A DNA stretch of 64,000 nt, from positions 1 through 64,000 of the forward strand of contig JBMNIW010000004.1 of the NCBI GenBank assembly GCA_050951325.1, written 5' to 3'. The position numbers and the translations under genes were made by a program. The notes under the pieces were generated by a model. The model saw only the letters and a program-made list of their open reading frames with translations. It searched no databases and was not told the DNA's origin. Every line of letters begins with the position of its first letter. The stretch's first letter is position 1. Positions 886-27,549 of the stretch are shown in pieces. The stretch is from Clostridia bacterium (GTDB lineage: Bacteria > Bacillota > Clostridia > UBA1212 > DUPL01).

Positions 886-1020
886 CTTTGTTTTTTTTAG
901 AGAAAACTATATCATGACACAAAACCAAAAGTCAAATCTAATACGACAAAACTTGTTTTAAAATGTCGAGTATTACACCCTGCACTCTGGTATAATCACT
1001 AATGAGAGGAGTGAAAATTA

Positions 1021-1869
1021 ATGGACCTCAACAAAGTTATTGATTATATTGAAAAAAACCTTACAAACGACATAACATTAGCCGATATATGCAAAGTTGC
1101 AAGCTGCTCAGACTATGCTTTGCGCAATGTCTTTTATTACCTTACCGGTTTGACTCTGAGTGAGTATATAAAATACAGAAAACTCTCAGAAGCAAACAAG
1201 GATCTGTTAAACAACGAAAAAGTTACAGATGTGGCATATAAATACGGTTATGAGTCAGTGGATGGGTTTAGCCGGGCTTTCAAAGCCTGGAGTGGATTGC
1301 TTCCATCAGAAGCTGCAAAACTAAACATATGCAAAACCTTGCCAAAACTGACTTTTAATATAGATGTAAAAGGAGGAAATAGTATGGATTATCGAATAGT
1401 TGAAATGCCAGGATTTTTTATAGCCGGCGTTAGCAAAAGAGTTCCCATGAAATTTGAGGGTGTGAACAACGCAATAATGGAACTTGCACAAAGCATAACC
1501 CAGGAACAAAGAGAGGAAATGCATACCCTTAAGAATATTGAGCCTTTTGAAGTTGTAAACGCATCATATGAGCATGATTACGACTTCCAAAAGGATGCAG
1601 GCGAACTCACCCACATGATTGGAGTTTTGACAACAAAGGAAAACATAAGCAGCAATCTTGATAAAGTCAGAATCCCTGCCTGCACCTGGGCTGTCTTTCC
1701 CAACAAGGGACCTTTCCCGGAAACCTTGCAGAACACCTATGCTAGAATCTACTCGGAATGGCTGCCTGTATCAGGTTATGAACTGGAAAAGGCGCCTATG
1801 TTCTCTTTTTCCAAAATGGACAATGAACAGGCATATAGCGAGATTTGGGTTGCAGTGAAAAAGGCATAA
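1021..1869 (+). CDS. AraC-family regulator with GyrI-like effector-binding domain
   Basis: N-terminal AraC double HTH (YGYESVDGFSRAFK), C-terminal GyrI-like domain (IYSEWLP...SEIWVAV); GAGGAG RBS. Confidence 0.9.
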   Translation: MDLNKVIDYIEKNLTNDITLADICKVASCSDYALRNVFYYLTGLTLSEYIKYRKLSEANKDLLNNEKVTDVAYKYGYESVDGFSRAFKAWSGLLPSEAAKLNICKTLPKLTFNIDVKGGNSMDYRIVEMPGFFIAGVSKRVPMKFEGVNNAIMELAQSITQEQREEMHTLKNIEPFEVVNASYEHDYDFQKDAGELTHMIGVLTTKENISSNLDKVRIPACTWAVFPNKGPFPETLQNTYARIYSEWLPVSGYELEKAPMFSFSKMDNEQAYSEIWVAVKKA

Positions 1870-1890
1870 GTGCATAAAGCTTATGCCTTT

Positions 1891-2187
1891 TCAACAACTA
1901 ACAACAATCCATTTGTTAACCGGCATCAGCCCAACTTCCTCATCATGCTCAAAATCCATCAAATGCATGATTAAAAATCTTATGGGTTCGAATTTAAGAA
2001 GCATTCCTTTTTCTGAAAACAGCATTACATTTCTTCTCTTGCCTTTAAGCCTTACAAATGATTTTTGATATATTCTCTTTGCCCTTTCATTTATACCCGG
2101 ATTGTCAATTTCAAAGTGATACACGTCATATTCATCCCATAACTCCTGCATTTCCTTTTCAGCCTTTTCAAAATCATATTTGTCCAT
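1891..2187 (-). pseudogene. Probable remnant of a class I aminoacyl-tRNA synthetase (ValRS-like N-terminus) fused to unrelated sequence
   Basis: First ~28 aa (MDKYDFEKAEKEMQELWDEYDVYHF) resemble ValRS/LeuRS N-termini; GGAGG RBS; lies behind a T-box; no HIGH motif follows. Confidence 0.6.
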
Positions 2188-2209
2188 TTCAACACCTCCA
2201 GAATAATAT

Positions 2210-2495
2210 ATAAAAAAAGTCCGCCTTATGCATTATGCTTAGGGCGAACCAATAATCTGCGGTACCACCTAAATTCAAGTATAAACACATCTGCACTCTG
2301 CCAATACGGGATAACTAAAGTCATCCGATATTGCTTCCCTTTTAACGGTGGGAATTTCCGTTGGAGCCTACTAAGACCAAAGTCCGTTCAGTCCACAGCT
2401 CAAAGGCTATTTCAACACTTCCCTCTCGAAGATTTGCACCACCCATCTTCTCTCTACGCTTCAAGACAGTATCTACTTCTCCTTATCAACGCCAT
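2210..2495 (-). ncRNA. T-box riboswitch leader
   Basis: Minus strand shows Stem I with GA motif, AGTAG loop-E, AGAGAGA bulge, GGTGCAA loop and GAA-ATA-G specifier loop; T-box AATTTAGGTGGTACCGCAG (2257-2275); terminator hairpin followed by a T run. Confidence 0.92.
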
Positions 2496-2527
2496 TTTGT
2501 AATTTAAATTTAAAACATCTCTAAACC

Positions 2528-3595
2528 CTATTTGAAAATCCCATTTTCATGAACAATTATTATATTGCACCCCTTTTCATTCAACTCCATTGCTTTCATT
2601 ACTTTTGAGAAATACGTACCATAGCTCCAGGCTTTACTGCCAAGTCCACCTACGATCACGATATCAGTACTTTTGTTAACACTGTTCTTACATGTAGCAC
2701 CCATACTTGTAAGTAACTCCTCAACTTGTTCTTTCGAGCCCAATTCAAAGTTTCCAGTCAGACACACAGTTTTATTCTCTAAATCTATATCTCCAGAAAT
2801 TCCAGAATTATGAACAGGACACACAAATCTTTTCAACTCGTATAACATTTCATCATCATTTACCATATAATTAAGCAGTCCACATATTTTGTCATACAAA
2901 TAATTGCCTGCAAGTTTACTATTGAGCAGATAATCTCTTGAAGCTTTCGAAGTCCAAGGGTTTCAACGCTCAAATTTATTTCGCCATCTTGGTCCTTTTT
3001 TAGAGTTGCTATCAGTAAAATAATTCTTGAGTTCCATATGTTTCATTTTTTCATAACATTTATATGTCGTTATGCAATCATCCAATGCGCGATGTTTGAA
3101 CTTGACTTGTACTCGCAGGTAATCTGCAATGGAAGACAATGTATAACTTTCCTGTCCATGGATGCAACATCTTGCCAGATACATTGTGTCTACAAAATCG
3201 TTGGATAAAACATGTCCATATAGATTTAACGAAGCGTTATTAAGAATATTCAGATCAAAGATATTTATATTGTGCCCAACAAGAACTGAATCTCCAAGAA
3301 AATCAAGATAATCACACAATACAGAATCAAGCTTGGGAGCGTCTTTAACCATTTCATTAGTTATGTCGTTGATATATGTAACCTCCAACGGTATTGGGTT
3401 GTCTGGCTTAACAAGTGATTGAAAAGTATCAACAACTTCCCCATTAACAACTTTTAAAGCCGCAAGTTCAATTATTTCTGATGTATAAATATTAACACCT
3501 GTTGTTTCTGTGTCTATGACAACGTAATCATTTTGCGGGCATACTAATCTGTTCCCTTTTTGTCCCTTCACGCCAATCATCCTATTCAATTTCAC
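2528..3595 (-). pseudogene. DEDDh 3'-5' exonuclease (DnaQ/PolC-like) plus BRCT domain protein, interrupted
   Basis: ORF 2963-3595 has DTETTG, VGHN..FD and HRALDD; ORF 2528-2899 is BRCT-like (VCLTGNF...KSTDIVIVG...KVMKAMEL); same frame, separated by one TGA at 2963-2965. Confidence 0.75.
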
Positions 3596-3827
3596 GTTAT
3601 GTTACTATTCCCTATATATTACATTCAACTTACATTTATGTCAACTTTTGCATGTATTGACTCTGCTTTACCAAGCAATAACAGAAGTAGTTAATGCAGT
3701 TATTAGCCATAAGCTGTGTCTATGCCATATATAAAAATTATTAACTTTACTTATAAGTCAAAAACACATATAATAACTATGGTGTGCCAAAGTGCAAACA
3801 CCACATATTTTTTTCATGGAGGCTACA

Positions 3828-5018
3828 ATGAAACGAACAGTAGGTACAGTAGTAAGAGGTGTGAGAACACCGGTAATTAGTGAAGGCGATAACCTTGTTG
3901 AAATCGTTGTAAACAGTTTGCTTGAATGCAGCAATGAGCAAAAGTTCGATTTCCATGACAGGGACGTAGTAGCCGTAACAGAAGCAGTCGTTGCAAGAGC
4001 ACAAGGAAACTATGCAACAATTGATAATATAGCAAAGGACGTAAGAGCCAAATTTGGCACTGATGAACTTGGTCTTGTTTTCCCTATTTTAAGCAGGAAC
4101 AGATTCGCAGTATGTCTTAAAGGCATTGCAAAAGCAGTAAAGAAGATTTACTTGCAATTAAGCTATCCTGCAGATGAAGTGGGTAACCACCTTTTCTGTG
4201 CAGAAAAGCTCTTTGAAACCGGACTTAATCCATATGCAGATGTACTAGACATCACCAGGTACAGAGAACTATTCGGATATGAATTGCATCCATTTACAGG
4301 TATCGATTATATCGAATACTACACTCAAATAGTCAAGGAACAAGGTTGCGAAATTGAAATAATATTCTCAAACAACCCAATATCAATACTTGATTACACA
4401 AAAAATGTTCTCACCTGCGACATACATTCAAGACACATGACCAAGAAGATGCTGCAAAAGAATGGCGTTGATAAGATATATAACCTTAGTGAAATCCTTA
4501 CTTCATCCATAGATGGTAGTGGCTACAATGAGCAGTACGGTTTGTTAGGTTCCAACAAAGCCACAGAAGAAAAGGTAAAGCTCTTCCCGAGAGACTGCCA
4601 CAACTTTGTATTTGAACTGCAAAAACGCCTGCTTGAAAAGACCAATAAACATATAGAGGTATTGGTATATGGCGACGGAGCCTTTAAAGATCCTGTAGGA
4701 AAGATTTGGGAGCTTGCGGATCCTGTTGTATCCCCTGCATACACTCCAGGTCTTGAGGGTACTCCAAACGAGTTCAAGCTGAAGTTCCTTGCAGACAACG
4801 ATTTTGCCAATTTGAAAGGCGAAGCTTTGGAAAAAGCCATTAGAGAATATATTGCAAACAAAAAAGAGGACTCGATAGATTCAGACGCATCCCAGGGAAC
4901 CACTCCAAGACAATTGTCTGACTTGCTTGGTTCTTTAGCGGACCTTACATCCGGCAGCGGAGACAAAGGAACTCCGGTTGTATTGATTCAAGGATACTTC
5001 GACAACTTTTCGTCATAA
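3828..5018 (+). CDS. Coenzyme F420-0:L-glutamate ligase (CofE)-like protein
   Basis: RTPVISEGDNL, VTEAVVARAQ and DLTSGSGDKGTPVVLIQG motifs; ATG 3828 preceded by GGAGG. Confidence 0.8.
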   Translation: MKRTVGTVVRGVRTPVISEGDNLVEIVVNSLLECSNEQKFDFHDRDVVAVTEAVVARAQGNYATIDNIAKDVRAKFGTDELGLVFPILSRNRFAVCLKGIAKAVKKIYLQLSYPADEVGNHLFCAEKLFETGLNPYADVLDITRYRELFGYELHPFTGIDYIEYYTQIVKEQGCEIEIIFSNNPISILDYTKNVLTCDIHSRHMTKKMLQKNGVDKIYNLSEILTSSIDGSGYNEQYGLLGSNKATEEKVKLFPRDCHNFVFELQKRLLEKTNKHIEVLVYGDGAFKDPVGKIWELADPVVSPAYTPGLEGTPNEFKLKFLADNDFANLKGEALEKAIREYIANKKEDSIDSDASQGTTPRQLSDLLGSLADLTSGSGDKGTPVVLIQGYFDNFSS

Positions 5019-15623: not shown

Positions 15624-17513
15624 TCATTTTGTTTTTTCCAAATAATATATTAATGCCTCAATATTAATTCCACTTTCCCACGGCCTGCATCTGCAGTTGA
15701 AAGGAACCTTGTCATCATAGTATTCTACCCATGCTCCTGTATCATCCACAATATCCAGCATGACTTTAAGCACCTCTTCCTTGAGAGGAACATCAAGATA
15801 TGCCAAATTGCAGAGCAAAAGTCCAAAGTCATATCCCAACGAGCGGTTTCCTTCCACATTTGACGGAATGAATCCTTTTTCCTTGAATAGACGAGCAAAT
15901 CTTTTAACATTTGTCCTTATCTCATCATCAGAGAACAAATCACTGTCGTAATAGACAGGCAACAAACCTGTAGAACCTAAAATATATCTCTTGCTTGGGT
16001 CTAGAATCATATCTATTTTCTCATCAAAGCAGTCAGGACATCTGTAATATCCATGTTCGCCTCTCTCAAGCCACATTAGAGGAGCAGGTCTTTCAAGAAG
16101 CTGGTCCACATCGCAAAAACCTCTGTGAACCCTGGGTTTTTCAAACCCTTTTTCCCTCTCCGGATTGTTTCCATGAATGACTCCATCTATTACAAAGTTC
16201 TTTTTGTACAAATCACTGGCTTCTTTGACAGCACTTTCATACCTTGACATCTCCTCATCATCCAAAAGCCCTTCTTCTCTGCAAAAATCCAAAAAGCGTC
16301 TTCCACCTTCAATAAACAGCAAAGTGGATTCAGCAGAACCGTGGTAAATAAAAGGTCTGGGGAATACAAAGCCTGCAATATATGTTTCATCTCCGCTGAA
16401 ACTGGTCATTCCCTTAACCAGATGAGGCATTTGCACACTGAAAGCCCATCTTAGCATATCATTGATTTCAATTAAAAAGTCTTTGTCTTTCGTTGCGTTG
16501 TAATAGTACATGGCGCAGTAAACAATGTATGCAGGTACTTCCACCTCATCATTCGAAAATAGTAGCCTGTCCTGATTGTGTCCCATGCTTTCTGCATTCA
16601 CCAAATTTCCAAAATGTTTCCACTTGTTGAACCAAAATTCAAGCACATTTTTGCCTTCTTCCACATACCCCGACTTAACAAGTGAACGCATGGTTCCAGC
16701 CATGTCCCTTACATACGCCAGTGGATAGTAGTGTCCTGCAAGAATACCTCCATCATAGGATTGCTGGCACTTTGTCAAAACAGCAACGCTTTCAAGGACA
16801 TCCTTTATCCTCTTCGCTTCAGGATGATCCTCTGGAACAGACTCCAAAATCCGGTCTCCTTTTTTGAGGTAGTCAGCAAAGTAGTGACCGCTTCTTTCCT
16901 CTATATCTGCACCGGAGAAATAGAAGGAAAGATGCTTGTCAATTTTCTTGGGATGGTCAGAAACCAAAGCCAATTGTCCGGAACCCTTTTCTAAAACAAA
17001 CGAATTCTCTTCCTTAATGTATTTTGCATCTCCATCCCAGAGAATGTACATTCTTAGCTCGTCCATTAAGGCAAAATTCGTAAAGTACCGAGTCCCTATT
17101 GTCATCACCAACATGACACATTCCTTCCTAACTCCGTTTCCAAAGTCGTAATCGCTGTAGTAGTATACTTTGGAATGAGGAAATAAAACAGGCTTTATGC
17201 AAATACTTTTCTCCATCTCAAAAGAGCGGACAAACACATTGTATTCAGGATCCATAAAATCCTTAAAAATGCCAATCTGTTTTCCATCCTCATATATATT
17301 ATGAATCCACTTCGAGTCTCTGGGTGCCCTTTGGGACCTTGACTCAATGTTTCTATCAGGTTCATTTATTTCAAAAGAGCCATAAACTGGTGATGAATAT
17401 GGAGGACCTTGTACCTGATTAATATTCGGACCTCTCCCATAAACAATCATTCTGCCGTTGCCTATGGCGTGAATACTTCCGTCATCTTCCTTCTTGTTGC
17501 ACCAGTATCGCAT
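15624..17513 (-). CDS. Six-hairpin glycosidase-like protein (GH15-like fold), paralog 2
   Basis: YPLAYVRD and EVEVPAY motifs, helical C-terminal half, no signal peptide; close paralog of the adjacent gene. Confidence 0.6.
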   Translation of the reverse strand: MRYWCNKKEDDGSIHAIGNGRMIVYGRGPNINQVQGPPYSSPVYGSFEINEPDRNIESRSQRAPRDSKWIHNIYEDGKQIGIFKDFMDPEYNVFVRSFEMEKSICIKPVLFPHSKVYYYSDYDFGNGVRKECVMLVMTIGTRYFTNFALMDELRMYILWDGDAKYIKEENSFVLEKGSGQLALVSDHPKKIDKHLSFYFSGADIEERSGHYFADYLKKGDRILESVPEDHPEAKRIKDVLESVAVLTKCQQSYDGGILAGHYYPLAYVRDMAGTMRSLVKSGYVEEGKNVLEFWFNKWKHFGNLVNAESMGHNQDRLLFSNDEVEVPAYIVYCAMYYYNATKDKDFLIEINDMLRWAFSVQMPHLVKGMTSFSGDETYIAGFVFPRPFIYHGSAESTLLFIEGGRRFLDFCREEGLLDDEEMSRYESAVKEASDLYKKNFVIDGVIHGNNPEREKGFEKPRVHRGFCDVDQLLERPAPLMWLERGEHGYYRCPDCFDEKIDMILDPSKRYILGSTGLLPVYYDSDLFSDDEIRTNVKRFARLFKEKGFIPSNVEGNRSLGYDFGLLLCNLAYLDVPLKEEVLKVMLDIVDDTGAWVEYYDDKVPFNCRCRPWESGINIEALIYYLEKTK

Positions 17514-17517
17514 TTTA

Positions 17518-19416
17518 CTATTCTCCTTGTTGCAATTTTTCCAGATAGTAGATTAGCGCCTCAATATTTATACCACTTTCCCAAGGTCTGCATCTGCAGT
17601 TGAACGGAACCTTGTTGTCATAATATTCAACCCAGGCTCCCGTTCCATCCACAATATCCAGCATGACTTTCAACACCTCTTCCTTGAGAGGATCGTCAAG
17701 ATATGCAAGATTATACAAAAGAAGTCCAAAGTCGTATCCCAATGAACGGGTTCCTTCAGCATGGGATGGAATATATCCTTTTTCCTCGAAAAGACGGGCA
17801 AAGAAATCTACATTTTTCCTTATTTCTTCCTTATTGAACAAGTCGCTATCGTAGTAGACAGGCAAAAGACCTGTGGAACCTAAGATATATCTCTTGTTAG
17901 GGTCGTGAACTTCCTCAATTTCCTCGTTAAGGCAGTTAGGACATCTGTAATAGTCGTGCTCGCCAAGTTCAAGCCAGGTATACGGGGCGCCTCTTTGCTT
18001 TAGCAAATCCACATCACAGAATCCTTTGTGGAATCTTGGTTTTTCAAAACCTTTTTCCCTCTCAGGGTTGTTTCCATGAATGACTCCATCAATTACAAAG
18101 TTTTCTTTGTACAAATTACGCGCTTCATCAACAGCACCTTCAAAGTTTGCCAGTTCCTTGTCATCCAGAAGACCTTCTTCCTTTGCAAACTCAATAAAAC
18201 GCCTTCCGCCTTCAATAAACAGCAAAGTGGATTCAGCAGAGCCATGATAAAGGAACGATCTGGGGAACACCCACCCCGCAATATATGTTTCGTCTCCACT
18301 GAAGCTGGTCATTCCTTTTACAAGATGCGGCAGCTGCACGCCAAAGGCCCACTTGACCATGTCGAAGATCTTAAGCAGGAATTCCTTGTCTTTGGTTGCA
18401 TTGTAATAGTACATGGCACAGTAAACTATGTAAGCTGGCACTTCCACCTCGTCATTGGGAAAAAACAATCTATCTCTGTCATGTCCCATGCTGTCAGCAT
18501 TCACCACAGTGCCAAATATTTTCCATTTCCTGTACCAGTATTCAAGCACATTTTTGCCTTCTTCCACATAACCGGATTTGATAAGAGAGCGCATGGTGCC
18601 CGCCATGTCCCTGACATAAGCCATTGGATAGAAATGTCCTGCCAAAATTCCTCCGGTACGGGCGGTTTGGCATTTTGTAAGGACTGCAACGCTCTCCAGA
18701 ACATCCTTTATTCTCTTTTCTTCAGGATGTCCCTGCGGAACAAGGGATAAGGTCTTGTCTCCCTTTTTCAAGTATTCATCAAAAAAGCCCCTGCTTCTCT
18801 TCTCAATATCAGCTCCTGAAAAGTAGAATTTAAAATGCTTTTCAATTTCACCTGGAACGGCGGATATGAATGCCACTTTTCCTTTGCCACCTTCAAAAAC
18901 AAGCGAATGGTCTTCCTCCAGGTATCTTACATTGCCATCCCAGATAACATACATCCTTATTTCTTCCTGCAGCGCATAATACATGAAGAACATAGTGCCG
19001 TCTCCAATCGCAAGCATTAAACAGTCTTTCCTGCCACCATCACCAAAGTCATAATCTTTGTAGTAGTGTACACGAGTATGTTGAAACAAATTCGGCTTGA
19101 TGCGTATACTCTTATCTCCCTCAAAGGAGCGAACAAACACGTTGTATTCAGGATCCATGCAGTCTGTAAACGTTCCTATGTGTTCTCCATCTTCATAAAT
19201 GTTATGGATCCATTTACTATCTCTGGAAGCTCTTTCAGATTTGGTCTCAATCGTTCTGTCAGGCTCGGATACTTCAAAACCCCCGTAAAAAGGCACCGAG
19301 TATGGAGGACCCTGCATCTGATGAATATTGGGTCCCCTGCCATAGACGATAAACCTGCCGTTGCCTATGGCGTGGATGCTTCCGTCATCTTCTTTCTTGT
19401 TGCACCAATATCGCAT
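17518..19416 (-). CDS. Six-hairpin glycosidase-like protein (GH15-like fold), paralog 1
   Basis: YPMAYVRD and EVEVPAY motifs; same N-terminus MRYWCNKKEDDGSIHAIGNGR as paralog 2; AAGGAG RBS. Confidence 0.6.
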   Translation of the reverse strand: MRYWCNKKEDDGSIHAIGNGRFIVYGRGPNIHQMQGPPYSVPFYGGFEVSEPDRTIETKSERASRDSKWIHNIYEDGEHIGTFTDCMDPEYNVFVRSFEGDKSIRIKPNLFQHTRVHYYKDYDFGDGGRKDCLMLAIGDGTMFFMYYALQEEIRMYVIWDGNVRYLEEDHSLVFEGGKGKVAFISAVPGEIEKHFKFYFSGADIEKRSRGFFDEYLKKGDKTLSLVPQGHPEEKRIKDVLESVAVLTKCQTARTGGILAGHFYPMAYVRDMAGTMRSLIKSGYVEEGKNVLEYWYRKWKIFGTVVNADSMGHDRDRLFFPNDEVEVPAYIVYCAMYYYNATKDKEFLLKIFDMVKWAFGVQLPHLVKGMTSFSGDETYIAGWVFPRSFLYHGSAESTLLFIEGGRRFIEFAKEEGLLDDKELANFEGAVDEARNLYKENFVIDGVIHGNNPEREKGFEKPRFHKGFCDVDLLKQRGAPYTWLELGEHDYYRCPNCLNEEIEEVHDPNKRYILGSTGLLPVYYDSDLFNKEEIRKNVDFFARLFEEKGYIPSHAEGTRSLGYDFGLLLYNLAYLDDPLKEEVLKVMLDIVDGTGAWVEYYDNKVPFNCRCRPWESGINIEALIYYLEKLQQGE

Positions 19417-19449: not shown

Positions 19450-20397
19450 TTACAAAAACCTTACATACTGTCCGTACCCTTCCTCTTCCATATTGTCTAC
19501 AGGTATGAATCTTAAGGAAGCATTGTTTATGCAATATCTGCGTCCTCCTTTTGACTCAGGACCATCATCAAAAACATGACCAAGGTGTATATCTCCTACC
19601 CTGCTTCTAACTTCAATCCTCCTCATGCCGTGGCTTAAGTCATCAACCTCCACTATTACATCTTCAGATATTGGATTGGAAAAACTTGGCCAACCGCAAC
19701 CTGCATCAAACTTGTCCTTTGATAAAAACAGCGGCTCACCCGTTGCAATGTCCACATAGATTCCCTTTTCCTCTACTTTCCAGTATTCATTATCAAAAGA
19801 TCTCTCAGTAAAGTTCTCACAGGTTACCTTGTACTTCAAATCATCCAGCCTTTCTCTTAACTCTTCCCTTTCCACATGTTTGTAAACCCTTGCATCAACA
19901 AAAGGTATCTCCTTTACTTTCCTCATATCTATATGGCAGTAACCGCCAGGATTGTTGTCCAAATAGTTCTGATGGTAATCTTCAGCAAGATAATAGTTGT
20001 CAAGCTTCATGATTTCGGTAACAATGGGCTCTTTATACTTTCTCTGCTCCATTCTTACCCATGCGTTAATTGTTTCAAGATCTGCGTCATCCACATAATA
20101 TATTCCGGTTCTGTACTGGATACCCACATCCCCACCTTGTCTGTTCATCAATGTAGGATCGATTATATTAAAAAAATGTTTAAGAAGGGTTTTAAGGCCA
20201 ACTATGCTTTTATCATACACCACACGCACTGTCTCCGCATGCCCTGTATGACTTAGTTCCTTGTAGGACGGATTCTTTGTTTTGCCGTTGGCATAACCCA
20301 CATCCGTCTTAACAACACCGGGAACTCTGTCAAAATAAGCCTGGGTGCCCCAGAAACATCCTCCTGCAAAATATATTTCCTTTATGTTATCGCTCAT
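19450..20397 (-). CDS. msrAB: Peptide methionine sulfoxide reductase MsrA/MsrB fusion
   Basis: GGCFWG (MsrA); GCGWPSF, HLGHVF and RYCIN (MsrB). Confidence 0.96.
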   Translation of the reverse strand: MSDNIKEIYFAGGCFWGTQAYFDRVPGVVKTDVGYANGKTKNPSYKELSHTGHAETVRVVYDKSIVGLKTLLKHFFNIIDPTLMNRQGGDVGIQYRTGIYYVDDADLETINAWVRMEQRKYKEPIVTEIMKLDNYYLAEDYHQNYLDNNPGGYCHIDMRKVKEIPFVDARVYKHVEREELRERLDDLKYKVTCENFTERSFDNEYWKVEEKGIYVDIATGEPLFLSKDKFDAGCGWPSFSNPISEDVIVEVDDLSHGMRRIEVRSRVGDIHLGHVFDDGPESKGGRRYCINNASLRFIPVDNMEEEGYGQYVRFL

Positions 20398-20410
20398 TTA
20401 TTTCTCTCCT

Positions 20411-21523
20411 TTACTTTAGCTTGTCCTCTATTGCCGATATAATAGGATACATCTCATTATAATGTTTGTGAATGAACAAAGCATTCTTTTTTTTGTACAA
20501 TTTGCGAGCTATTGTGTCGGATATTTCAATAATCATCCTCTCATGCTCGCATTGAAGTGGTGACACTTTGTCAATATATCCACTTGCACTAATGTTAGCA
20601 CAAGAACAATAGTTTCTGCACCTGTCATACAAAGCGCACCCCTCGCAATCAGAGGCAATACTTTTGCTTAGTTCATGAACCTTTTTTCTTTTCTCATCTG
20701 AAATACCCGTATCCAAATGCCCCAGATGATATTCATCCCGGTCAACAAGCTGAAGACATGGATACAAATCTCCCTCGGGAGTTACTGAAATATGCCTTTC
20801 TCCTAGTGAGCAGGTTTCCTTTGAACTTTTGTTGAAAATATAGTTGCTGATTTTTATATCAAAGGGAGCAAAATAGAATTTGTCTTCCTTTATTGTCTTT
20901 TCATAATACAAATCCGCAATCCTGCCATACTCTTCCTTTAACACTCTCAAATCCTCATCCGTCCAGGGTGCAAAATGATTTATCGTGCAAACAACATAGG
21001 TAAATCCCAAATCATACAAATACTTTACCGAATCAGAAAGATAAGGTGCAGTCTCCGGATTTACAGTTGCCATGCAAACTGCATTCGGTTTGTACTTTAA
21101 AAGCATTTTTGCAGCATTAACAACCCTTTCATGGCTTCCCTGACTGTTTAAATCCACTCTGCACATATCATGCACATTTTTGTCGCCATCGATACTGATG
21201 GCTATAAGGAGCCCGAAATTCTTTGCAAACAGGCACATCTGCTCATCCAATAACAGACCATTCGTAGTCAGACTGAAGGAAAAACGTCTGTCAGGATACC
21301 TTGCTTTGGAATACAAGACAGTATCATATATTAAATTCTTCATGAGGAGGGGCTCTCCTCCATAAAAGGAGATGCCAATGTTTTCTTTCTCAAGGGAACG
21401 TCGAACTACAAAATCGACAGCTTTAAAAGCTGTCATTCTGTCCATGAATCTTTCGCATTTGTCTACAAAGCAATATGAACATTTCAAATTGCAGCTGTTT
21501 GTTAGATGTAATGTAATATTCAT
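20411..21523 (-). CDS. Radical SAM/SPASM-domain protein
   Basis: CNLKCSYC, YGGEPLL and ISIDG; SPASM C-x12-G-x4-C ... C-x2-C-x5-C-x3-C-x-C ... C; no N-terminal RRE extension. Confidence 0.93.
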   Translation of the reverse strand: MNITLHLTNSCNLKCSYCFVDKCERFMDRMTAFKAVDFVVRRSLEKENIGISFYGGEPLLMKNLIYDTVLYSKARYPDRRFSFSLTTNGLLLDEQMCLFAKNFGLLIAISIDGDKNVHDMCRVDLNSQGSHERVVNAAKMLLKYKPNAVCMATVNPETAPYLSDSVKYLYDLGFTYVVCTINHFAPWTDEDLRVLKEEYGRIADLYYEKTIKEDKFYFAPFDIKISNYIFNKSSKETCSLGERHISVTPEGDLYPCLQLVDRDEYHLGHLDTGISDEKRKKVHELSKSIASDCEGCALYDRCRNYCSCANISASGYIDKVSPLQCEHERMIIEISDTIARKLYKKKNALFIHKHYNEMYPIISAIEDKLK

Positions 21524-22179
21524 AAAATACCTTGCTCTTCCATCATTTTAATAAAGTCTCTTACCTGCTGACGAAGCTCTTCTTCCATTGAACCGTAGTC
21601 AAAACCTTGAGTGTTGTAAAATGCAGCAACTATTTCACCATTTTCCGTCTCGAACATGCCATCTTCAAAAAACTCCTTCAGGAATTCTCCTCTTGTAAAA
21701 TAATCGTCTATCAAGACTTTATCATCCGTCCATTTGGAAAAGTCATGATGAGACACAAATTCAAAGTAGATAGTTCCATCCTTGCTCATACCATCCACCT
21801 CTAGTTCTGCCTTTAAGGTGTGGTACTCGAATTCTTCTTCATACTCCACATCCACAGGCAGCTCGGCATTTACTTTTACTCTATAGGCGTGTTCAAACTC
21901 GATACCTTGAGCTAAAAATTCGTCAATTATTATTTCAACACCCTCATCCTCTGCAAAAGTCAGAGTAACATACGCATCTCCCGCCAATACAACAGGAACT
22001 GTTCTATTAAAAAGAGTTCTTGGATCGCAGCTTGCCAAAAGAACAGATGAAAAAAGAGTGCCAGAGACCAAAAGCCCTTTCCATCTTTCAGGCATGTTCT
22101 TTAGTAATTCGGGATTGATTAATGTCTCTTCCTTTGTAGGATACCCTGCATTGTATCTCCTCGCCTTACAGATTTTCAT
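21520..22179 (-). CDS. Lipoprotein with long conserved leader, paralog A
   Basis: MKICKARRYNAGYP...PERWK, hydrophobic stretch, LASC lipobox at Cys51; stop overlaps the rSAM start; GGGAG RBS. Confidence 0.82.
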   Translation of the reverse strand: MKICKARRYNAGYPTKEETLINPELLKNMPERWKGLLVSGTLFSSVLLASCDPRTLFNRTVPVVLAGDAYVTLTFAEDEGVEIIIDEFLAQGIEFEHAYRVKVNAELPVDVEYEEEFEYHTLKAELEVDGMSKDGTIYFEFVSHHDFSKWTDDKVLIDDYFTRGEFLKEFFEDGMFETENGEIVAAFYNTQGFDYGSMEEELRQQVRDFIKMMEEQGIL

Positions 22180-22208
22180 AGTAATCTCCCTTACCAAATT
22201 AAATTATA

Positions 22209-22892
22209 TTATATCACACCTTGATATTCCAACATTTGAATGAAATCTCTTACCTGTTTTCTTAAATCCTTTTCCATATTGTCAACATTAGTGTGTTTGC
22301 TATAAAATGCAAGAACTATCTCATCGTTCTTCGTATTGAACTTTCCGTCCTCAAGGAATCCCCTCAAGAAGGTCGTTGAGTAGTAAGGATACATGTTATC
22401 CTGCCCGGCCCATTTGGAAAAGTCTTCTTTGGATATGAATTCAAAAGAAATACTAAGGTCCTCACTTGTTCCGTCAACAATAAATTCAGAAGTCAGAGTA
22501 TAATATTCGAACTCCATGGAATCTCCAATACTTTTTACATCCACAGGCAGCTCTGCAACAACCCTCTTTGTATTTTCAGAATCAAACATAATACCATAAG
22601 CTTTAAACTCATCTACAATAATGTCTATTGCCTCTTCATCAATGTAATAATACGGGATTGAAATTACAACTCCCTCAATTAAAGGGGGAGTTGGTGTAGG
22701 TTTTATTTTATTCCATAAGTCCTGCGGACTGTTTATACCACAACTGGCAAGTATTACTGATGACAGGATTGTACCGGAAGCCAATAACGCTTTCCATCTG
22801 TCAGGGGCATTCTTTAATAGATTGGGATTTTTCAAAGTCTCTTCCCTTTTAGGGTAACCTGCATTGTATTTTTTAACTTTATGTATTTGCAT
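22209..22892 (-). CDS. Lipoprotein with long conserved leader, paralog B
   Basis: Start at ATG 22892 by alignment to paralog A (MQIHKVKKYNAGYP...PDRWK...LASC). Confidence 0.82.
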   Translation of the reverse strand: MQIHKVKKYNAGYPKREETLKNPNLLKNAPDRWKALLASGTILSSVILASCGINSPQDLWNKIKPTPTPPLIEGVVISIPYYYIDEEAIDIIVDEFKAYGIMFDSENTKRVVAELPVDVKSIGDSMEFEYYTLTSEFIVDGTSEDLSISFEFISKEDFSKWAGQDNMYPYYSTTFLRGFLEDGKFNTKNDEIVLAFYSKHTNVDNMEKDLRKQVRDFIQMLEYQGVI

Positions 22893-22909
22893 ATCCTGCC
22901 CCCGAATCT

Positions 22910-23605
22910 TCACAATACTCCTTGTTCCTGTAGCATCTGAACAAACTCTCTCACCTGCTGCCTGAGTTCCTCTTCCAGCCATGTAGGGTCATGATGCGAA
23001 CTGTTGTAAAAGGCCATGACAAGTTCACCATTCTTTGTTTCAAAAATTCCTTCTTCCAAGAACTCATCAAGAAATTTTCCTTTAATATGTTCAGAGTTCA
23101 TGTTCTCATCAGTTGTCCATTTGGAAAAATCCTCTTTTGATACATACTCAAAAGAAATTTTGTAATCCTTGTTGATGCCGTCCACATTTAGCCCGGTGGG
23201 AAGGGTGTAATATTTGAATTTATCGTTCCTAACATCAAACTTCACATCCACCGGCAGCTCCGCCACAACCTTGTCAGTATTGACTGTATCAAAAGCAATG
23301 CCGCTGTTTGCAAACTCGTCAACAATAACGTCAATAGCCTCCTCATCGGTGAAGTAATACTCTTAAATTACAATCATCCCTCCGAAAAAGCCTTGTTGTG
23401 GTGTTGGTGTTGGTATAAGTTTGTTCAATAAATCCTGAGGGCTGTTCACACCACAGCTTGATAATATTACTGAGGACAAAACAGAACCGGATACCAGAAG
23501 GTTTTTCCACCTGTTAGGCGTATTCTTTAAAAGATTCGGATTATTCAGTGTATCTTCCCTTCTGGGATACCCTGGCTTCTATTTGTATACTTTACAAATT
23601 TTCAT
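22910..23605 (-). pseudogene. Lipoprotein with long conserved leader, paralog C; two in-frame stops
   Basis: Manual translation MKICKVYK*KPGYPRRE...PNRWK...LSSC...GMIVI*EYYFTDEEAID continues in frame into ORF 22910-23266; TAG at 23579-23581, TAA at 23363-23365; AAGGAG RBS. Confidence 0.85.
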
Positions 23606-23743
23606 AATATTCTCCTTGCAGATATTTGATACAATTATATATCATCTTTACAAAAAACACAAAATTTATTTAATTGTTATAAGCGTGCCGTTATGATATT
23701 ATTATCTAGTAAGAATCAAATCAGGAGGAAAGGAGAATTACAT

Positions 23744-24727
23744 ATGAATTACAACCAACAATACGGACAATTCAACAATCCGTTCAACAACATTACACCT
23801 GAGCAGAAAAAAACGATAAAAAGAGTTGTTATAGCAGTTGTAATAGTTATAATAGCCTTAATAATTGGCACAACCAGCTGGTATACAGTTGAAGAAAAAC
23901 AGATGGGTGTTGTGACCACTTTCGGAAAGGTTACAAAAACCACAGAGGCTGGTTTTCATTTAAAACTTCCCTTTGGCATACAAAAGGTATATAAGGTGGA
24001 TGTTAATGTCCATCAGAAAATTGAAATTGGATATGTATACGATGAGAATACAGGAGAGTACAAGACATTAGGCAATGAAAGCAAGATGATTACAGGAGAT
24101 TTCAATATTGTAAACATCGACTTCTTTGTGGAGTACAAGATATATGATCCTGTAAAATATCTTTTCTCATCCATCAATCCTGAAGGAATATTGAAAAGCC
24201 TTATTCAGAGCCAGATACGTACCGTTGTCAGCGCTTACAAGGTAGAAGACGTACTTACCACGGAAAAGGCCAGCATCCAGATGGAGTGTAAGGAACTAAT
24301 TACTGATGAACTTGAGAAATATGACATAGGACTTCAATTGATAGACGTCAAGATTCAGGATGCGGAAGCTCCTACCGAAGAAGTAATTGCAGCCTTCAAG
24401 GCAGTTGAGACTGCAAAGCAGGACAAGGAAACTGCCTTGAATGAAGCAAAAGCCTACGAGAACCAGAAACTGCCCGAGGCTCAGGCTGAAAGCGACAAGC
24501 TCAAACAGGAAGCAGAATACAAGAAGCAAAACAGAATAAACGAGGCAAGACAGCAAATCGCCATGTTCAATGCCATCTACAAGGAATATGAGATAAATCC
24601 AAATATTACAAAGCAGAGGATGTACTACGAGGCTATCGAAAGCATTCTCCCGGGAGTTAAAATCATAATCATAACAGACGAAAACGGCACACAAACGCTT
24701 CTGCCGATAGACAAATTCACATCGTAA
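23744..24727 (+). CDS. hflK: FtsH protease modulator HflK
   Basis: N-terminal TM and SPFH domain, MITGDFNIV, ITKQRMYYE; paired with hflC. Confidence 0.9.
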   Translation: MNYNQQYGQFNNPFNNITPEQKKTIKRVVIAVVIVIIALIIGTTSWYTVEEKQMGVVTTFGKVTKTTEAGFHLKLPFGIQKVYKVDVNVHQKIEIGYVYDENTGEYKTLGNESKMITGDFNIVNIDFFVEYKIYDPVKYLFSSINPEGILKSLIQSQIRTVVSAYKVEDVLTTEKASIQMECKELITDELEKYDIGLQLIDVKIQDAEAPTEEVIAAFKAVETAKQDKETALNEAKAYENQKLPEAQAESDKLKQEAEYKKQNRINEARQQIAMFNAIYKEYEINPNITKQRMYYEAIESILPGVKIIIITDENGTQTLLPIDKFTS

Positions 24728-24740
24728 GGAGGTATTTGAG

Positions 24741-25625
24741 ATGAAAAAGAAAGTAACACTTACACTGGCAATCGTTATTGCATTCATACTAATCATATTG
24801 GCTGCCTCTTCCCTATATACTGTAAAAGAGGACGAATACGCCCTCATTCTTCGCTTTTCAAAGGTTGAGTCAATAAAAAGCGAGTCGGGACTCTACTTCA
24901 GAATCCCTTTTATTGAAACCATTCTGAAATTTCCTAAGAATCTGCAGCTTTACGATCTCAGACCTTCTGACGTTCTGACAAGCGACTCAAAGGCAATGAG
25001 TGTGGACAGCTATGTACTTTGGAAAATATCAGACCCGCTCCAGTTTTACAAAACATTGGGTTCAATAGCAGAAGCCCAGGTAAGACTTGATGCTAGTACA
25101 TACAACGCACTTAAGAATGTAATAGGAAGAAAAGAACAAAATGCAATAATAACTCAGCAGGATACCGGCAGAGATACCTTGAACGAAGAAATATTCCAGA
25201 ATGTGAAAAACACATCAACAGGTTACGGAATTGAAATAATGGACGTAAAGGTTAAAAGATTTGATTTGCCTCAAGCCAACGAGGAAGCTGTATACAGAAG
25301 AATGATATCAGACAGAAATCAAATTGCAGCAAGATATCTTGCTGAAGGTCAGTCTGAAGCAAACATGCTGAAGAACGAAGTTGACAAGAAAGTAAGCCTC
25401 CTCATTTCAGAGGCAAGAGTAACAGCTGAAGAATTGATAGCTGAAGGTGAAGCGGAATACATGAGACTTCTTGCAGAAACCTTTGATACAAAGGAAAAGC
25501 AGGACTTCTACATATTCATGCGTTCTCTTGAAGCATTGAAGGCATCCCTCACTGGAGATGACAAGACTGTTGTTCTTGGCAGGGATTCGGATATAGCGAA
25601 AATCCTTATGGGGATTTCCGAATAA
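24741..25625 (+). CDS. hflC: FtsH protease modulator HflC
   Basis: SPFH domain, AVYRRMISDR and FYIFMRSLEA. Confidence 0.9.
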   Translation: MKKKVTLTLAIVIAFILIILAASSLYTVKEDEYALILRFSKVESIKSESGLYFRIPFIETILKFPKNLQLYDLRPSDVLTSDSKAMSVDSYVLWKISDPLQFYKTLGSIAEAQVRLDASTYNALKNVIGRKEQNAIITQQDTGRDTLNEEIFQNVKNTSTGYGIEIMDVKVKRFDLPQANEEAVYRRMISDRNQIAARYLAEGQSEANMLKNEVDKKVSLLISEARVTAEELIAEGEAEYMRLLAETFDTKEKQDFYIFMRSLEALKASLTGDDKTVVLGRDSDIAKILMGISE

Positions 25626-25634
25626 TATGGGGAG

Positions 25635-26150
25635 ATGATAGACAGTATGCAAAAAATGCAACATCCTGACAAGAAAGTCATGAAGGTATGGAGATTCAAA
25701 TACTATGTTCTTTTGGCATTACAGATTATAGCGTATGTAATAGCACTAGTATTTGCCCTCACTTCCGGGAACAAGGATTTTGCAATATTCGCAACCACTG
25801 TGTTTGTATTAACTGCAGCTGCGGTAATTGCCGCAGCTACAAGTTTACCAAAACTAAGTTACAAGCGCAGAAAATATTTGTTCACGGAGGACAAGATAGA
25901 AATAGTAAAAGGAATCATATTCATTGAAACATCCATGATACCCATTTCAAGAATCCAGCACCTGACAATTGACGAAGGACCTCTTCTCAGACGCCACAAT
26001 CTGGCGTCCATAGTCGTGTACACAACTGCGGGCTTCTTTAAAATGGAAGGTCTGGCACGTGAAGACGCATACAAAATAGCGGATTTTCTAAAAAACACCG
26101 TCAATATAAAAGTAAGAAATGAGGATGAAAATGATAAAGAGGCGCAGTAG
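25635..26150 (+). CDS. YdbS-like membrane protein with bacterial PH domain
   Basis: Two TM helices then IPISRIQHL...GPLLR...YTTAG. Confidence 0.8.
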   Translation: MIDSMQKMQHPDKKVMKVWRFKYYVLLALQIIAYVIALVFALTSGNKDFAIFATTVFVLTAAAVIAAATSLPKLSYKRRKYLFTEDKIEIVKGIIFIETSMIPISRIQHLTIDEGPLLRRHNLASIVVYTTAGFFKMEGLAREDAYKIADFLKNTVNIKVRNEDENDKEAQ

Positions 26151-27549
26151 TTTTGTAACTGTAATAGACAACACCTGGAAAGGTGCTATCGGCTTCACAG
26201 TGTTCATTATATTGGAGCTTTTTGAGAATGGTGTAAGTTCAAATCTAAAGTATGTAGTACTTGTTCTGGCATTAGTTATTGCGCCAATCCTCTTCCTGTT
26301 GCAGTTCATAAGATGGCGTATAACGTATTTCATCTATGACGGAGATACAGTTACCCTCGAAAAGGCGGGTATCTTTAAAAAGAAGCTGACAATCCCTGTA
26401 GATAAGATATCGACGGTGGATATAAAAAAGAATATTCTCGGACACCTTACAGGTACCTCAAGAGTGAAAGTTGACAGTGGCGGAAAACAAATGGGCAACG
26501 ACAACAGCGGCGCTGAAATCAACCTGATATTCGATGATGAGTTTGCAAGGCAGATAAAGGCATACATCTTCAAGGAAGAAGTTGAAGTACACACAAAGGG
26601 CTTCAGAATGTCGGGCATGGAATTGTTCATAGATGGTCTACTTAGAAGAAAACTAATCTATGCAATCCCTTTCTTCTTTTCGATTTACGTGCTGGCAACT
26701 GCAGTACTAAATGAAAAAACCGTAGACAGCATTACATCCAAGGCATTAACGTATATTAAAAGCCTTGAATTTTTCGTCATTTTGATTCTTGCTGTAATAT
26801 TTATTATTATCACCAATATCACTTCAATAGTAAAGGAACTCATAAAATATCACAACTTCACATTGCAAAAGCAAAGAGACGTGATTGCAACTAGCTTTGG
26901 CCTTTTCACAACTCAAAACTATTCACTGCCAATAGAAAAGATAAGGGCAGTAATACTAAGACAAAATACTCTCTTCAGACTTCTTGGCTACTGGTCCATA
27001 TCGGTGGTATGCATTGGTTTGGGTGATGAAAAGAATGAAAAACCAGTTATCTTTCCTCTTGCCAACAAGGAAAGACTTAAAAGCATTCTGTCCATGATTG
27101 ATCCTGCAATCGTTGTTGACGACCCAATTCACAAGGTACCAAAAAGAGGCAGAGTTTTCTACTATCTGCCCCTTGTAGTATACCTGATACTTGTGCTCAT
27201 CATTTTTGCGGTAACCAGCATCATTTTCGAAGTAAAAACCATATACTTTGTCGCACCGGCACTTGTTCTGCCCCTTCTTCTGGTTGTTGCATTCTTGTCC
27301 TTGAAAAACGCAGGACTGTTGTACAATGAAAACTATGTAACTGTAACAAACGGAATCTTCACAAAAACCACTACCATTGTTCCAGTAAGACATGTGCAAT
27401 CGGTGGGCATGAGGGAAGCTTTTTACAAAAGAAAGAAAAATTTGTGCAATCTGCATCTTAAGTTCTATCCAGGATTCACAAATCCCAGTCTTTCAAGTTT
27501 TGACAAGGTGCATTTTGCAGCCATTGCAGAAATGCTGGAAAAGGGTTAA
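26131..27549 (+). CDS. YdbT-like membrane protein with three bacterial PH domains
   Basis: Three TM-pair + PH repeats (IPVDKI, LPIEKI, VPVRHVQ); overlaps the YdbS-like gene. Confidence 0.8.
   Translation: MIKRRSSFVTVIDNTWKGAIGFTVFIILELFENGVSSNLKYVVLVLALVIAPILFLLQFIRWRITYFIYDGDTVTLEKAGIFKKKLTIPVDKISTVDIKKNILGHLTGTSRVKVDSGGKQMGNDNSGAEINLIFDDEFARQIKAYIFKEEVEVHTKGFRMSGMELFIDGLLRRKLIYAIPFFFSIYVLATAVLNEKTVDSITSKALTYIKSLEFFVILILAVIFIIITNITSIVKELIKYHNFTLQKQRDVIATSFGLFTTQNYSLPIEKIRAVILRQNTLFRLLGYWSISVVCIGLGDEKNEKPVIFPLANKERLKSILSMIDPAIVVDDPIHKVPKRGRVFYYLPLVVYLILVLIIFAVTSIIFEVKTIYFVAPALVLPLLLVVAFLSLKNAGLLYNENYVTVTNGIFTKTTTIVPVRHVQSVGMREAFYKRKKNLCNLHLKFYPGFTNPSLSSFDKVHFAAIAEMLEKG

Follow-up and report, generated by a model that had tools for sequence, protein, structure and literature searches.

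In a 64,000-nucleotide stretch of DNA from a Clostridia bacterium (contig JBMNIW010000004.1 of assembly GCA_050951325.1, positions 1 to 64,000; the whole stretch is called the window), a gene for a radical S-adenosylmethionine (rSAM)/SPASM enzyme was found directly behind three tandem paralogous genes for precursor lipoproteins, and these precursors share a conserved N-terminal extension that precedes an otherwise ordinary signal peptide rather than serving as one itself. The locus represents a two-gene module that is widespread and unannotated. It probably forms a two-component protein-maturation module, in which a single rSAM/SPASM enzyme is responsible for the products of one or several tandem genes, the substrates being exported proteins and mostly lipoproteins. 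The N-extension, first to emerge from the ribosome, would be the recognition leader. In the cytoplasm, the extended leader would be bound by the SPASM domain, the last helix and the C-terminal tail of the enzyme, replacing a missing RRE (RiPP recognition element; RiPPs are peptides made by the ribosome and modified after translation), and a radical modification initiated by hydrogen abstraction would be made on the unfolded chain C-terminal to the leader. Following Sec export, signal peptidase II (or I) would cut off the leader along with the signal peptide, and this route would explain the lack of dedicated protease or transporter genes. The outcome would be an alpha/beta protein that carries the modification and is tethered to the membrane on its extracytoplasmic side. 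We infer the occurrence, site and nature of the modification from the evidence below. The interpretation proposed in an earlier reading of this DNA (the original prediction) is, as a whole, supported, and none of the refuting conditions named there that lend themselves to computation was borne out.

Organization of the locus and the three paralogs

All four genes lie on the minus strand, in the order paralog C, paralog B, paralog A and enzyme. Paralog C (22910..23605; 231 codons, ATG with AGGAG ahead) is a pseudogene in this assembly, and paralogs B (22209..22892; 227 amino acids) and A (21520..22179; 219 amino acids, ATG with GGGAG ahead) encode precursor lipoproteins. The enzyme gene (20411..21523; 370 amino acids) shares an ATGA overlap with paralog A, made up of the TGA of the paralog and the ATG of the enzyme. 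The gene coordinates and this overlap agree with the arrangement originally described, in which three tandem paralogs stand directly upstream of the rSAM/SPASM gene and the last stop overlaps its ATG. In the alignment, the identity of paralog A is 51% with B and 50% with C. Longer open reading frame (ORF) calls (TTG at 22197 and ATG at 22982) do no more than reach back to the earliest start codon that follows a stop. No family match was found when the three paralogs were scanned against Pfam and NCBIfam, and two sub-threshold matches to a fragment of paralog C were taken as chance.

Paralog C had been called a pseudogene with a TAG in place of the conserved Tyr. This stop is present at codon 9 (23579-23581), and an additional TAA, which the earlier reading had not listed, was found at codon 81 (23363-23365), the frame being otherwise kept. 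An intact counterpart with neither stop exists as entry P0005 of the protein collection. Moreover, codon 9 is polymorphic among strains at position 23579 (C on the plus strand), where one DNA run has G, giving TAC (Tyr), and keeps the TAA. The existence of the intact P0005 and of the TAC run that keeps the TAA indicates that paralog C is a decaying copy with several alleles.

The N-extension and the export signal

The first 33 residues of each paralog are hydrophilic and rich in proline and end in P-x-R-W-K; 16 hydrophobic or small residues come next, and then a lipobox (LLAS-C, ILAS-C and ILSS-C in the three paralogs), the Cys of which is residue 51 in all three, exactly as had been claimed. 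A hydrophobic segment followed by [LVI][ASTVI][GAS]C, the pattern used for lipoprotein precursors, is thus present in each paralog, and lipidation is predicted from the sequence. In paralog A the leader occupies codons 1-34 (22078..22179, minus strand), which is the most conserved region of the family and the part predicted to dock on the enzyme, and the hydrophobic segment with its lipobox (LLAS-C51) was read from 22027..22077 (minus strand). The leader of paralog B (codons 1-34; 22791..22892, minus strand) was assigned by the alignment and the leader profile (E 4.5e-12). The residues invariant within positions 1-34 of the three-paralog alignment (M1, I3, K5, G12, Y13, P14, E17, T19, L20, N22, P23, L25, L26, K27, N28, P30, R32, W33 and K34) match the conserved motif reported before.

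Only near-species relatives were obtained from 60 close relatives and a first homolog search, and the family was defined with a profile of six close relatives. With this profile the family comprised 603 representative clusters (50% identity) at E<=1e-3 and 195 at E<=1e-10. When the 150 best family matches were examined together with the close relatives of the window, the leader motif was found at the N-terminus of 153 of 155 proteins. The family consensus over 33-34 residues is M-x-x-x-P-V-x-x-Y-x-x-P-x-Y-P-T-x7-P-E-L-L-x3-P-x-R-W-x-x-N, and across 150 proteins P30 and W33 are invariant and P14, R32, L26, P23 and P11 nearly so. The distance of the Trp of P-x-R-W from Met1 is fixed, this residue being number 34 in 107/153 proteins and number 33 in 11/153. 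A true start further downstream, such as Met29 of paralog A, is inconsistent with this spacing; Met29 occupies a column that holds V, L or I in the family alignment and is therefore not a conserved start. Pairwise identity was not uniform along the precursors, with values of 43% in the N-extension, 36% in the mature domain and 29% in the hydrophobic region.

A lipobox-like motif follows the Trp in 111/153 family proteins. By pattern, none was found in the other 42, many of which have AxA-like, signal-peptidase-I-like sites when inspected by eye. For this quarter or so of the family the original wording (lipoproteins) is to be corrected. The original prediction had also described a maturase-docking leader that doubles as the export signal; the docking part is supported by a predicted complex (see below), whereas the doubling is not, as the extension sits ahead of an ordinary signal peptide.

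Linkage of leader-bearing genes and the enzyme

Linkage was surveyed in 398 genomes of the same class, which were scored with family, enzyme and leader-only profiles. The family profile matched seven genomes, and in all seven an enzyme ortholog adjoined the family gene or genes (adjacent coordinates were given by the searches in G047, G086, G273, G307, G351 and G255). The leader-only profile matched eight genomes, six of them real, with the enzyme ortholog adjacent in 6/6; the matches in G222 and G247 were rejected as the antisense frame of a SecDF-like ORF (the G247 locus was inspected, and G222 gave near-identical scores with the same internal TAA). In the 3.08-Mb genome, the leader profile matched only the three paralogs (E 8.5e-14 to 4.3e-9), the next match having an E value of 0.052; this specificity and the recurrence of the pairing exceed what chance would give. 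Among enzyme relatives on genome contigs (36-39% identity), three of five had two to three tandem leader-bearing genes directly upstream.

Eighty metagenome loci were picked by the C-terminal motif of the substrate; they are not all independent because some of the contigs are near-duplicates. The enzyme was present in 62 of them, downstream of the family genes in 55 (46 complete and 9 cut by the contig end), upstream in 6 and between family genes in 1. All but one of the 55 downstream enzymes begin within 100 nucleotides of where the last family gene stops, and the median distance is 2 nucleotides. Of the 18 loci without the enzyme, 15 have less than 400 nucleotides of DNA downstream. As a minimum count, a single family gene was present in 54 loci, a pair in 16, a set of three in 6 and of four in 3, and 1 locus had six. 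When the neighbours of the enzyme-bearing loci were clustered, no other gene family was present in more than seven loci, which indicates that there is no dedicated protease or transporter and no conserved third gene. These findings show that the linkage between leader gene and enzyme is near-obligate, and they speak against the possibility raised earlier that leader homologs mostly occur without the enzyme (6/6 real leader-only genomes and 62/80 metagenome loci). In one genome (G255; L039, 2623-3051), the leader-bearing gene lies downstream of the enzyme; it encodes 142 amino acids with two hydrophobic segments and is without the usual mature domain.

The enzyme search matched 12 of the 398 genomes at E<=1e-55. 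Four of the five genomes that were positive for the enzyme and negative for the family belong to one genus (g74) and have one to three tandem genes for mini-lipoproteins of 74-133 amino acids directly upstream; the fifth has a truncated enzyme ORF. The g74 mini-lipoproteins keep only the first half of the leader, the P-E-L-L...P-x-R-W half being absent, and their enzymes are without the C-terminal tail described below. Together with the tail-less ortholog, they resemble the system in a form reduced to peptide size. They were found at L035-L038 (genomes G109, G401, G359 and G191), with the shortened leader M-K-I-x-P-x-K-x-Y-K-K-P-L-Y and acidic mature parts containing repeated [VIL]-x-L-[GAD]-G motifs. 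A string resembling V-V-L-A-G-D of paralog A was also observed in a g74 mini-lipoprotein.

The rSAM/SPASM enzyme

The enzyme begins directly with the radical SAM core, and its SAM-cluster motif CX3CX2C spans residues 11-18. The SPASM cysteines are C238, C256, C293, C296, C302, C306, C308 and C325, and they contain the seven-Cys SPASM pattern (C238-x12-G-x4-C256, C293-x2-C296-x5-C302-x3-C306 and C325). The Pfam Radical_SAM model scored 58.6 bits (cut-off 29.5) and the SPASM model 19.7 bits, slightly under its cut-off of 21.5. All curated family cut-offs were missed: the best NCBIfam match was PapB (NF047865) with 228.6 bits against 340, so that the enzyme is not a member; the SCIFF maturases (TIGR03974) gave 180.9 against 425 and the anaerobic sulfatase maturases (TIGR03942) 124.2 against 349.45. 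The last value bears on a possibility raised earlier, that the enzyme is a sulfatase maturase with its substrate elsewhere, and speaks against it. Among solved chains the closest were CteB (5wgg, 207 bits) and, in second place, the anaerobic sulfatase maturase anSME (4k37, 118 bits). The alignment to the SCIFF profile pairs profile position 99 with protein residue 3, and on CteB the aligned region opens at residue 99; since both start at position 99, the enzyme is without an N-terminal RRE.

At its other end, the enzyme has a family-specific tail (residues 348-367, ALFIHKHYNEMYPIISAIED; 20423..20482, minus strand), which is part of the predicted leader-binding surface. The FIHKHYNEMYP string pointed out originally is present within it, and the tail is conserved in 51 of 55 aligned orthologs with the consensus M-F-I-Q-K-H-Y-N-[DE]-x-[FY]-P-x-x-S-x-x-E-D. 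The four orthologs without it are the g74 enzymes, which are linked to short leaders, a co-variation that favours the proposed module. Orthologs of the enzyme scored 241-385 bits compared to at most 148 bits for other rSAM/SPASM genes of the same genomes, which likewise speaks against a sulfatase maturase. In the 55 orthologs the SAM-cluster cysteines (C11, C15 and C18), the G-G-E-P motif and the four auxiliary-cluster-II cysteines are all invariant. In contrast, all four Cys of the auxiliary-cluster-I positions (C238, C256, C306 and C308) are absent in 6/55.

A relationship to the radical SAM cyclopropyl synthases (TvgB/TigE) had been prompted by the hydrophobic-Gly-Gly motifs of the mini-lipoproteins. 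In these synthases, a Gly-Tyr-Trp motif supplies a tyrosyl ligand to auxiliary cluster I (PMC10878394). The window enzyme has G315-Y316-I317, a position that was not aligned to TigE, and the ortholog consensus has no majority residue after the Gly at position 315. The idea was dropped because the Gly-Tyr-Trp motif is absent.

Predicted docking of the leader on the enzyme

Three co-folding runs combined the enzyme, represented by a 55-row alignment, with residues 1-36 of the leader, for which the alignment had 150 rows. The interface score (ipSAE) was 0.70, 0.71 and 0.69, respectively, compared to 0.01 for the best control, these figures being the model's own confidence. In the calibration of the tool, that ipSAE mark was reached by 58/80 solved complexes and 2/110 mismatched pairs, a guide that is rough when own alignments are supplied. 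The runs agreed in at least 97% of contacts, and the predicted local distance difference test (pLDDT) of the partner was at least 75. The leader is accordingly predicted by the model to bind the SPASM domain, the C-terminal helix and the tail of the enzyme, as would be expected from the docking role proposed for it originally. Predicted contacts involve leader residues 1-9, 11-17, 19, 25-26 and 28-33 and, on the side of the enzyme, Y228-N231, D292-L298, R301, C325, the last helix (R329-K346) and the tail (A348-E366), within which A348, L349, I351, H352, Y355, N356, I362 and E366 lie in the interface. Among the predicted interface residues, W187, E213, C293, C296, R301, D336, Y355, N356 and E366 are invariant or nearly so in the enzyme family. 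We know of no solved complex of this kind, and CteB binds its peptide partly via an RRE that is missing here; it therefore seems unlikely that the model merely reproduced a memorised structure.

These predictions also bear on a different role for the N-extension, namely that it is itself the substrate core, with for example Tyr9, Tyr13 or Trp33 modified and the product being either a released signal-peptide-derived peptide or the cytoplasmic tail of an anchored protein. No other region of the family is as conserved as the N-extension, residues 1-9 of this extension are predicted beside the SPASM CxxC loop, residues 292-298 and C325, and, besides the hydrophobic segment and lipobox, its first ~14 residues (M-K-I-x-P-x-K-x-Y-x-K-P-L-Y) are all that is visibly common to the g74 mini-lipoproteins and the full-size family. 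However, the predicted interface contains no enzyme residue before 187, so that the leader is not placed at the SAM cluster by the model. Most presequences appear cleavable (lipobox-like in 111/153, many others AxA-like by eye), which would mean that the extension is discarded, and the large conserved mature domain and its tandem diversification would be left unexplained. We regard a core within the N-extension as quite improbable, and the reading of the extension as a leader is preferred.

The mature domain and the candidate modification

The family has no Pfam or NCBIfam model, and its members are named 'hypothetical protein' in databases. Thirteen long members among 35 diverse relatives scanned have a Cu_amine_oxidN1 domain at the C-terminus, after which they are named in the source databases; no domain was found in the other 22. 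Labels of metagenome-assembled genomes (MAGs) place members in Clostridiaceae, Armatimonadota and Myxococcota, and among look-alike ESM Atlas clusters Planctomycetota and Bacillota were the commonest phyla. The AlphaFold2 model of paralog A (mean pLDDT 84.7) has a compact alpha/beta domain at residues ~72-219, with pLDDT of 88-98 in most blocks from residue 71 on. A Foldseek search of the mature domain against the PDB returned nothing at E<=0.001 (best E 0.28), and in a wide VIA-align search the best Z was 5.5 (root-mean-square deviation 3.3 over 87 residues, homing endonuclease I-Bth0305I). A PD-(D/E)xK-type nuclease fold recurs in the top VIA-align rows, all below the tool's 'common' level, and neither fold nor function was assigned.

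In the main branch of the family, the first mature motif after the tether is [VI]-A-P-[IV]-F-x-H-G-x-G-x-G-x-F-G-C-x-x-V-x-P-P-x-F-L-S-E-E-E-A, and the equivalent segment of paralog A is V-P-V-V-L-A-G-D. Our best guess is that this first conserved mature segment (the H-G-x-G motif of the main branch and V-P-V-V-L-A-G-D in paralog A) is the site of modification, and that the window enzyme would carry out a cysteine-independent reaction on it. The usual thioether to a core Cys is impossible in the window because the lipobox Cys51 is the sole Cys of paralog B (also in entry P0007). The absence of a core cysteine from the window substrates makes a chemistry that is new for this enzyme clade probable.

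The F-G-C Cys, kept in 80 of 121 classifiable family proteins and located 11 residues ahead of the nearly invariant Glu of L-S-E-E-E-A, raises the alternative that the main or ancestral branch forms a thioether from this Cys to a nearby acceptor such as that Glu, the Cys-less paralogs of the window being unmodified or modified otherwise. The closest named families (PapB, the SCIFF maturases and CteB, by the scores given above) are thioether formers, and in CteB auxiliary cluster I binds the substrate Cys. The six orthologs without auxiliary-cluster-I Cys pair only with substrates without the F-G-C Cys, or with no substrate gene in the DNA examined. Conversely, at each F-G-C locus the enzyme shows the first auxiliary-cluster-I motif (C-x9-15-G-x4-C; at L046 the later Cys was not found by the pattern). 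These patterns hint that auxiliary cluster I and the F-G-C Cys may work together in the main branch. On the other hand, enzymes with all auxiliary-cluster-I Cys also occur with Cys-less substrates only (the window, L085, L089, L092 and L104; L100, first put among these loci by the pattern, does have the F-G-C Cys), one such substrate being free of Cys over the whole protein, and both substrate types stand under one enzyme in the tandem arrays L056 and L081. Moreover, a thioether of this kind concerns the chemistry of the relatives and would leave the window system unexplained. It is considered unlikely as an account of the system. A sub-clade of enzymes (L004-L008 and L019/L028) was seen to have lost the four auxiliary-cluster-I cysteines and kept the tail, and its substrates have H-H-G-G, not H-G-x-G-x-G-x-F-G-C.

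It might also be argued that these proteins are not modified covalently at all. The N-extension would then be a special signal for targeting or timing, which the enzyme would bind as a holdase or as a checkpoint for export, or else the enzyme would act on something different, such as a lipid or small molecule that works together with the lipoprotein, and the linkage of the two genes would stem from that. In favour of this, the branches have neither a conserved Cys nor an invariant candidate target residue in common, one sub-clade keeps the pairing despite its lost auxiliary cluster, and orphan family genes exist. Nevertheless, the invariance of the SAM-cluster Cys, G-G-E-P and the four auxiliary-cluster-II Cys in the 55 orthologs would argue for retained catalysis, the tight gene coupling and predicted peptide-like docking are typical of maturase-substrate pairs, and we know of no rSAM/SPASM enzyme that acts solely as a chaperone. 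This makes a system without covalent modification very unlikely in our estimation.

Several observations weigh against the proposed maturation of exported proteins by a leader-guided enzyme. The nearest named relatives of the enzyme (PapB, SCIFF/CteB, QhpD and anSME) are all known to act on Cys, anSME also on Ser; the window substrates offer the lipobox Cys only, and family proteins free of Cys exist (P0018, P0038 and L085_759_1460). Widely different spacer lengths separate the leader from the conserved mature domain, which is awkward for a reaction measured from the leader. The co-variation of tail loss with short leaders amounts to one evolutionary event because it comes from one genus only. 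With respect to linkage, no enzyme gene is present at L054, L062 and L103 despite 888-4997 nucleotides of DNA downstream, extra family copies lie away from the enzyme in two genomes (G273 C5 and G351 C8), and the enzyme relatives L004 and L006 have no leader-bearing gene in the DNA examined. Finally, contigs from RNA libraries, described below, may include DNA and do not show a single transcript.

Comparison with known systems

Most of what is known of rSAM/SPASM maturases concerns short peptides, and protein-sized substrates are few, namely sulfatases, QhpC and, recently, CrpA. The CteB/PapB-type maturases resemble the window system in providing its best sequence matches, in the three-cluster rSAM/SPASM architecture, in having the substrate gene directly upstream and in the layout of leader plus downstream target. 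They differ in that the window enzyme is under both cut-offs, is without RRE and has a C-terminal tail; furthermore, their substrates are short Cys-rich peptides, whereas those found here are exported proteins of 215-400 amino acids, with a single Cys in paralog B. The enzyme is like anSME in its length of ~370 amino acids, its rSAM/SPASM architecture and its lack of an RRE, and anSME acts before export on a full-size protein with an export signal. In contrast, the window substrates are not sulfatases (no Pfam family), and recognition apparently occurs by the N-terminal leader and not just by a local target motif.

A pairing of an rSAM/SPASM gene with a putative lipoprotein gene is also known from TIGR04133/TIGR04134 (rSAM_w_lipo/lipo_with_rSAM). 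This pair was rejected, as TIGR04134 had no match in the genome, and the five matches of TIGR04133 were weak (61 bits or less, the cut-off being 425) and lay elsewhere, with none at the window's enzyme. The original view that the leader is not theirs was thus upheld.

CrpC of Methanococcus voltae is an rSAM/SPASM enzyme that modifies the protein-sized CrpA of the same cluster; CrpC has a predicted RRE, and CrpA is cysteine-rich and receives ranthionine cross-links (PMC13692751). The window system, in comparison, is without RRE and its substrates are Cys-poor and exported. The bufferins are RiPPs modified by multinuclear non-haem iron oxidases (MNIO), with a Sec signal peptide on the precursors, modification in the cytoplasm and general Sec export without a dedicated transporter; this use of a Sec signal peptide is called rare among bacterial RiPPs, and the signal peptide is dispensable for modification (PMC11626156). 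The general export pathway would be shared, whereas the bufferin enzyme is an MNIO and not an rSAM enzyme, and in the window system a separate conserved extension stands before the signal peptide, with docking on the enzyme predicted for it.

The literature yielded analogies but no description of the system, subscription journals and supplementary files being outside the search. No paper was found that combined radical SAM with lipobox and leader peptide, none of the papers listed for radical SAM and SPASM contained a lipoprotein signal peptide, and matches for radical SAM with copper amine oxidase N-terminal were unrelated by title. Four elements are new here, namely a dedicated leader that precedes the signal peptide, an enzyme that has a tail and no RRE, exported substrates that are poor in Cys, and the arrangement in tandem arrays. 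With some hesitation, it is suggested that these elements could define a new and unnamed maturation class, in which a RiPP-type leader stands ahead of a general export signal, the tail of an RRE-less enzyme catches nascent lipoproteins or secreted proteins, the radical modification is cysteine-independent (the first mature motif might, for example, be epimerised or receive a C-C or C-O link) and the signal peptidase serves as leader peptidase. Such a class would be widespread in anaerobes of several phyla, going by MAG labels and ESM Atlas taxa.

If the maturation reading is true, it adds a large unannotated family (603 clusters) to the protein-sized rSAM/SPASM substrates and a new mode of substrate recognition, in which a C-terminal tail takes the place of the RRE and the leader precedes the signal peptide. 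It would also point to an undescribed chemical modification of surface proteins ahead of export. The module offers a simple two-gene test case for the coordination of cytoplasmic radical chemistry with Sec/Lsp export, and sequence profiles could name thousands of 'hypothetical' proteins.

Expression, habitat and neighbouring genes

Positions 20300-23578 are matched without mismatch by contigs from two metatranscriptome runs, each of a different study. One RNA-library contig holds the enzyme start, all of paralog A and part of B, and another spans the junction of the enzyme gene with a downstream msrAB gene. In both runs the contigs end at 23578, beside the polymorphic position 23579; a transcript end at this point was rejected in favour of an assembly break. 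A promoter and terminator scan gave 18 promoter-like sites compared to 14.0 +/- 3.7 in shuffled sequences, with nothing decisive between the genes. The runs that hold the stretch are labelled as bioreactor, sludge, anaerobic digester or biogas fermenter metagenomes.

The fused msrA/msrB gene (19450-20397, minus strand; 315 amino acids with PMSR and SelR domains) starts 13 nucleotides past the enzyme stop; it is not a conserved partner because no neighbour family recurs in more than seven enzyme-bearing loci. Two tandem paralogs of 629 and 632 amino acids, both starting MRYWCNKKEDDGSIHAIGNG, are encoded at 15624-17513 and 17518-19416 (minus strand), and the protein from 17518-19416, the one of the pair that was scanned, had no Pfam or NCBIfam match. 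On the plus strand, divergent from the paralog array, lies an hflK/hflC-like pair (SPFH/Band 7; 23693-25625), which is followed by two membrane-protein ORFs at 25635-27549.

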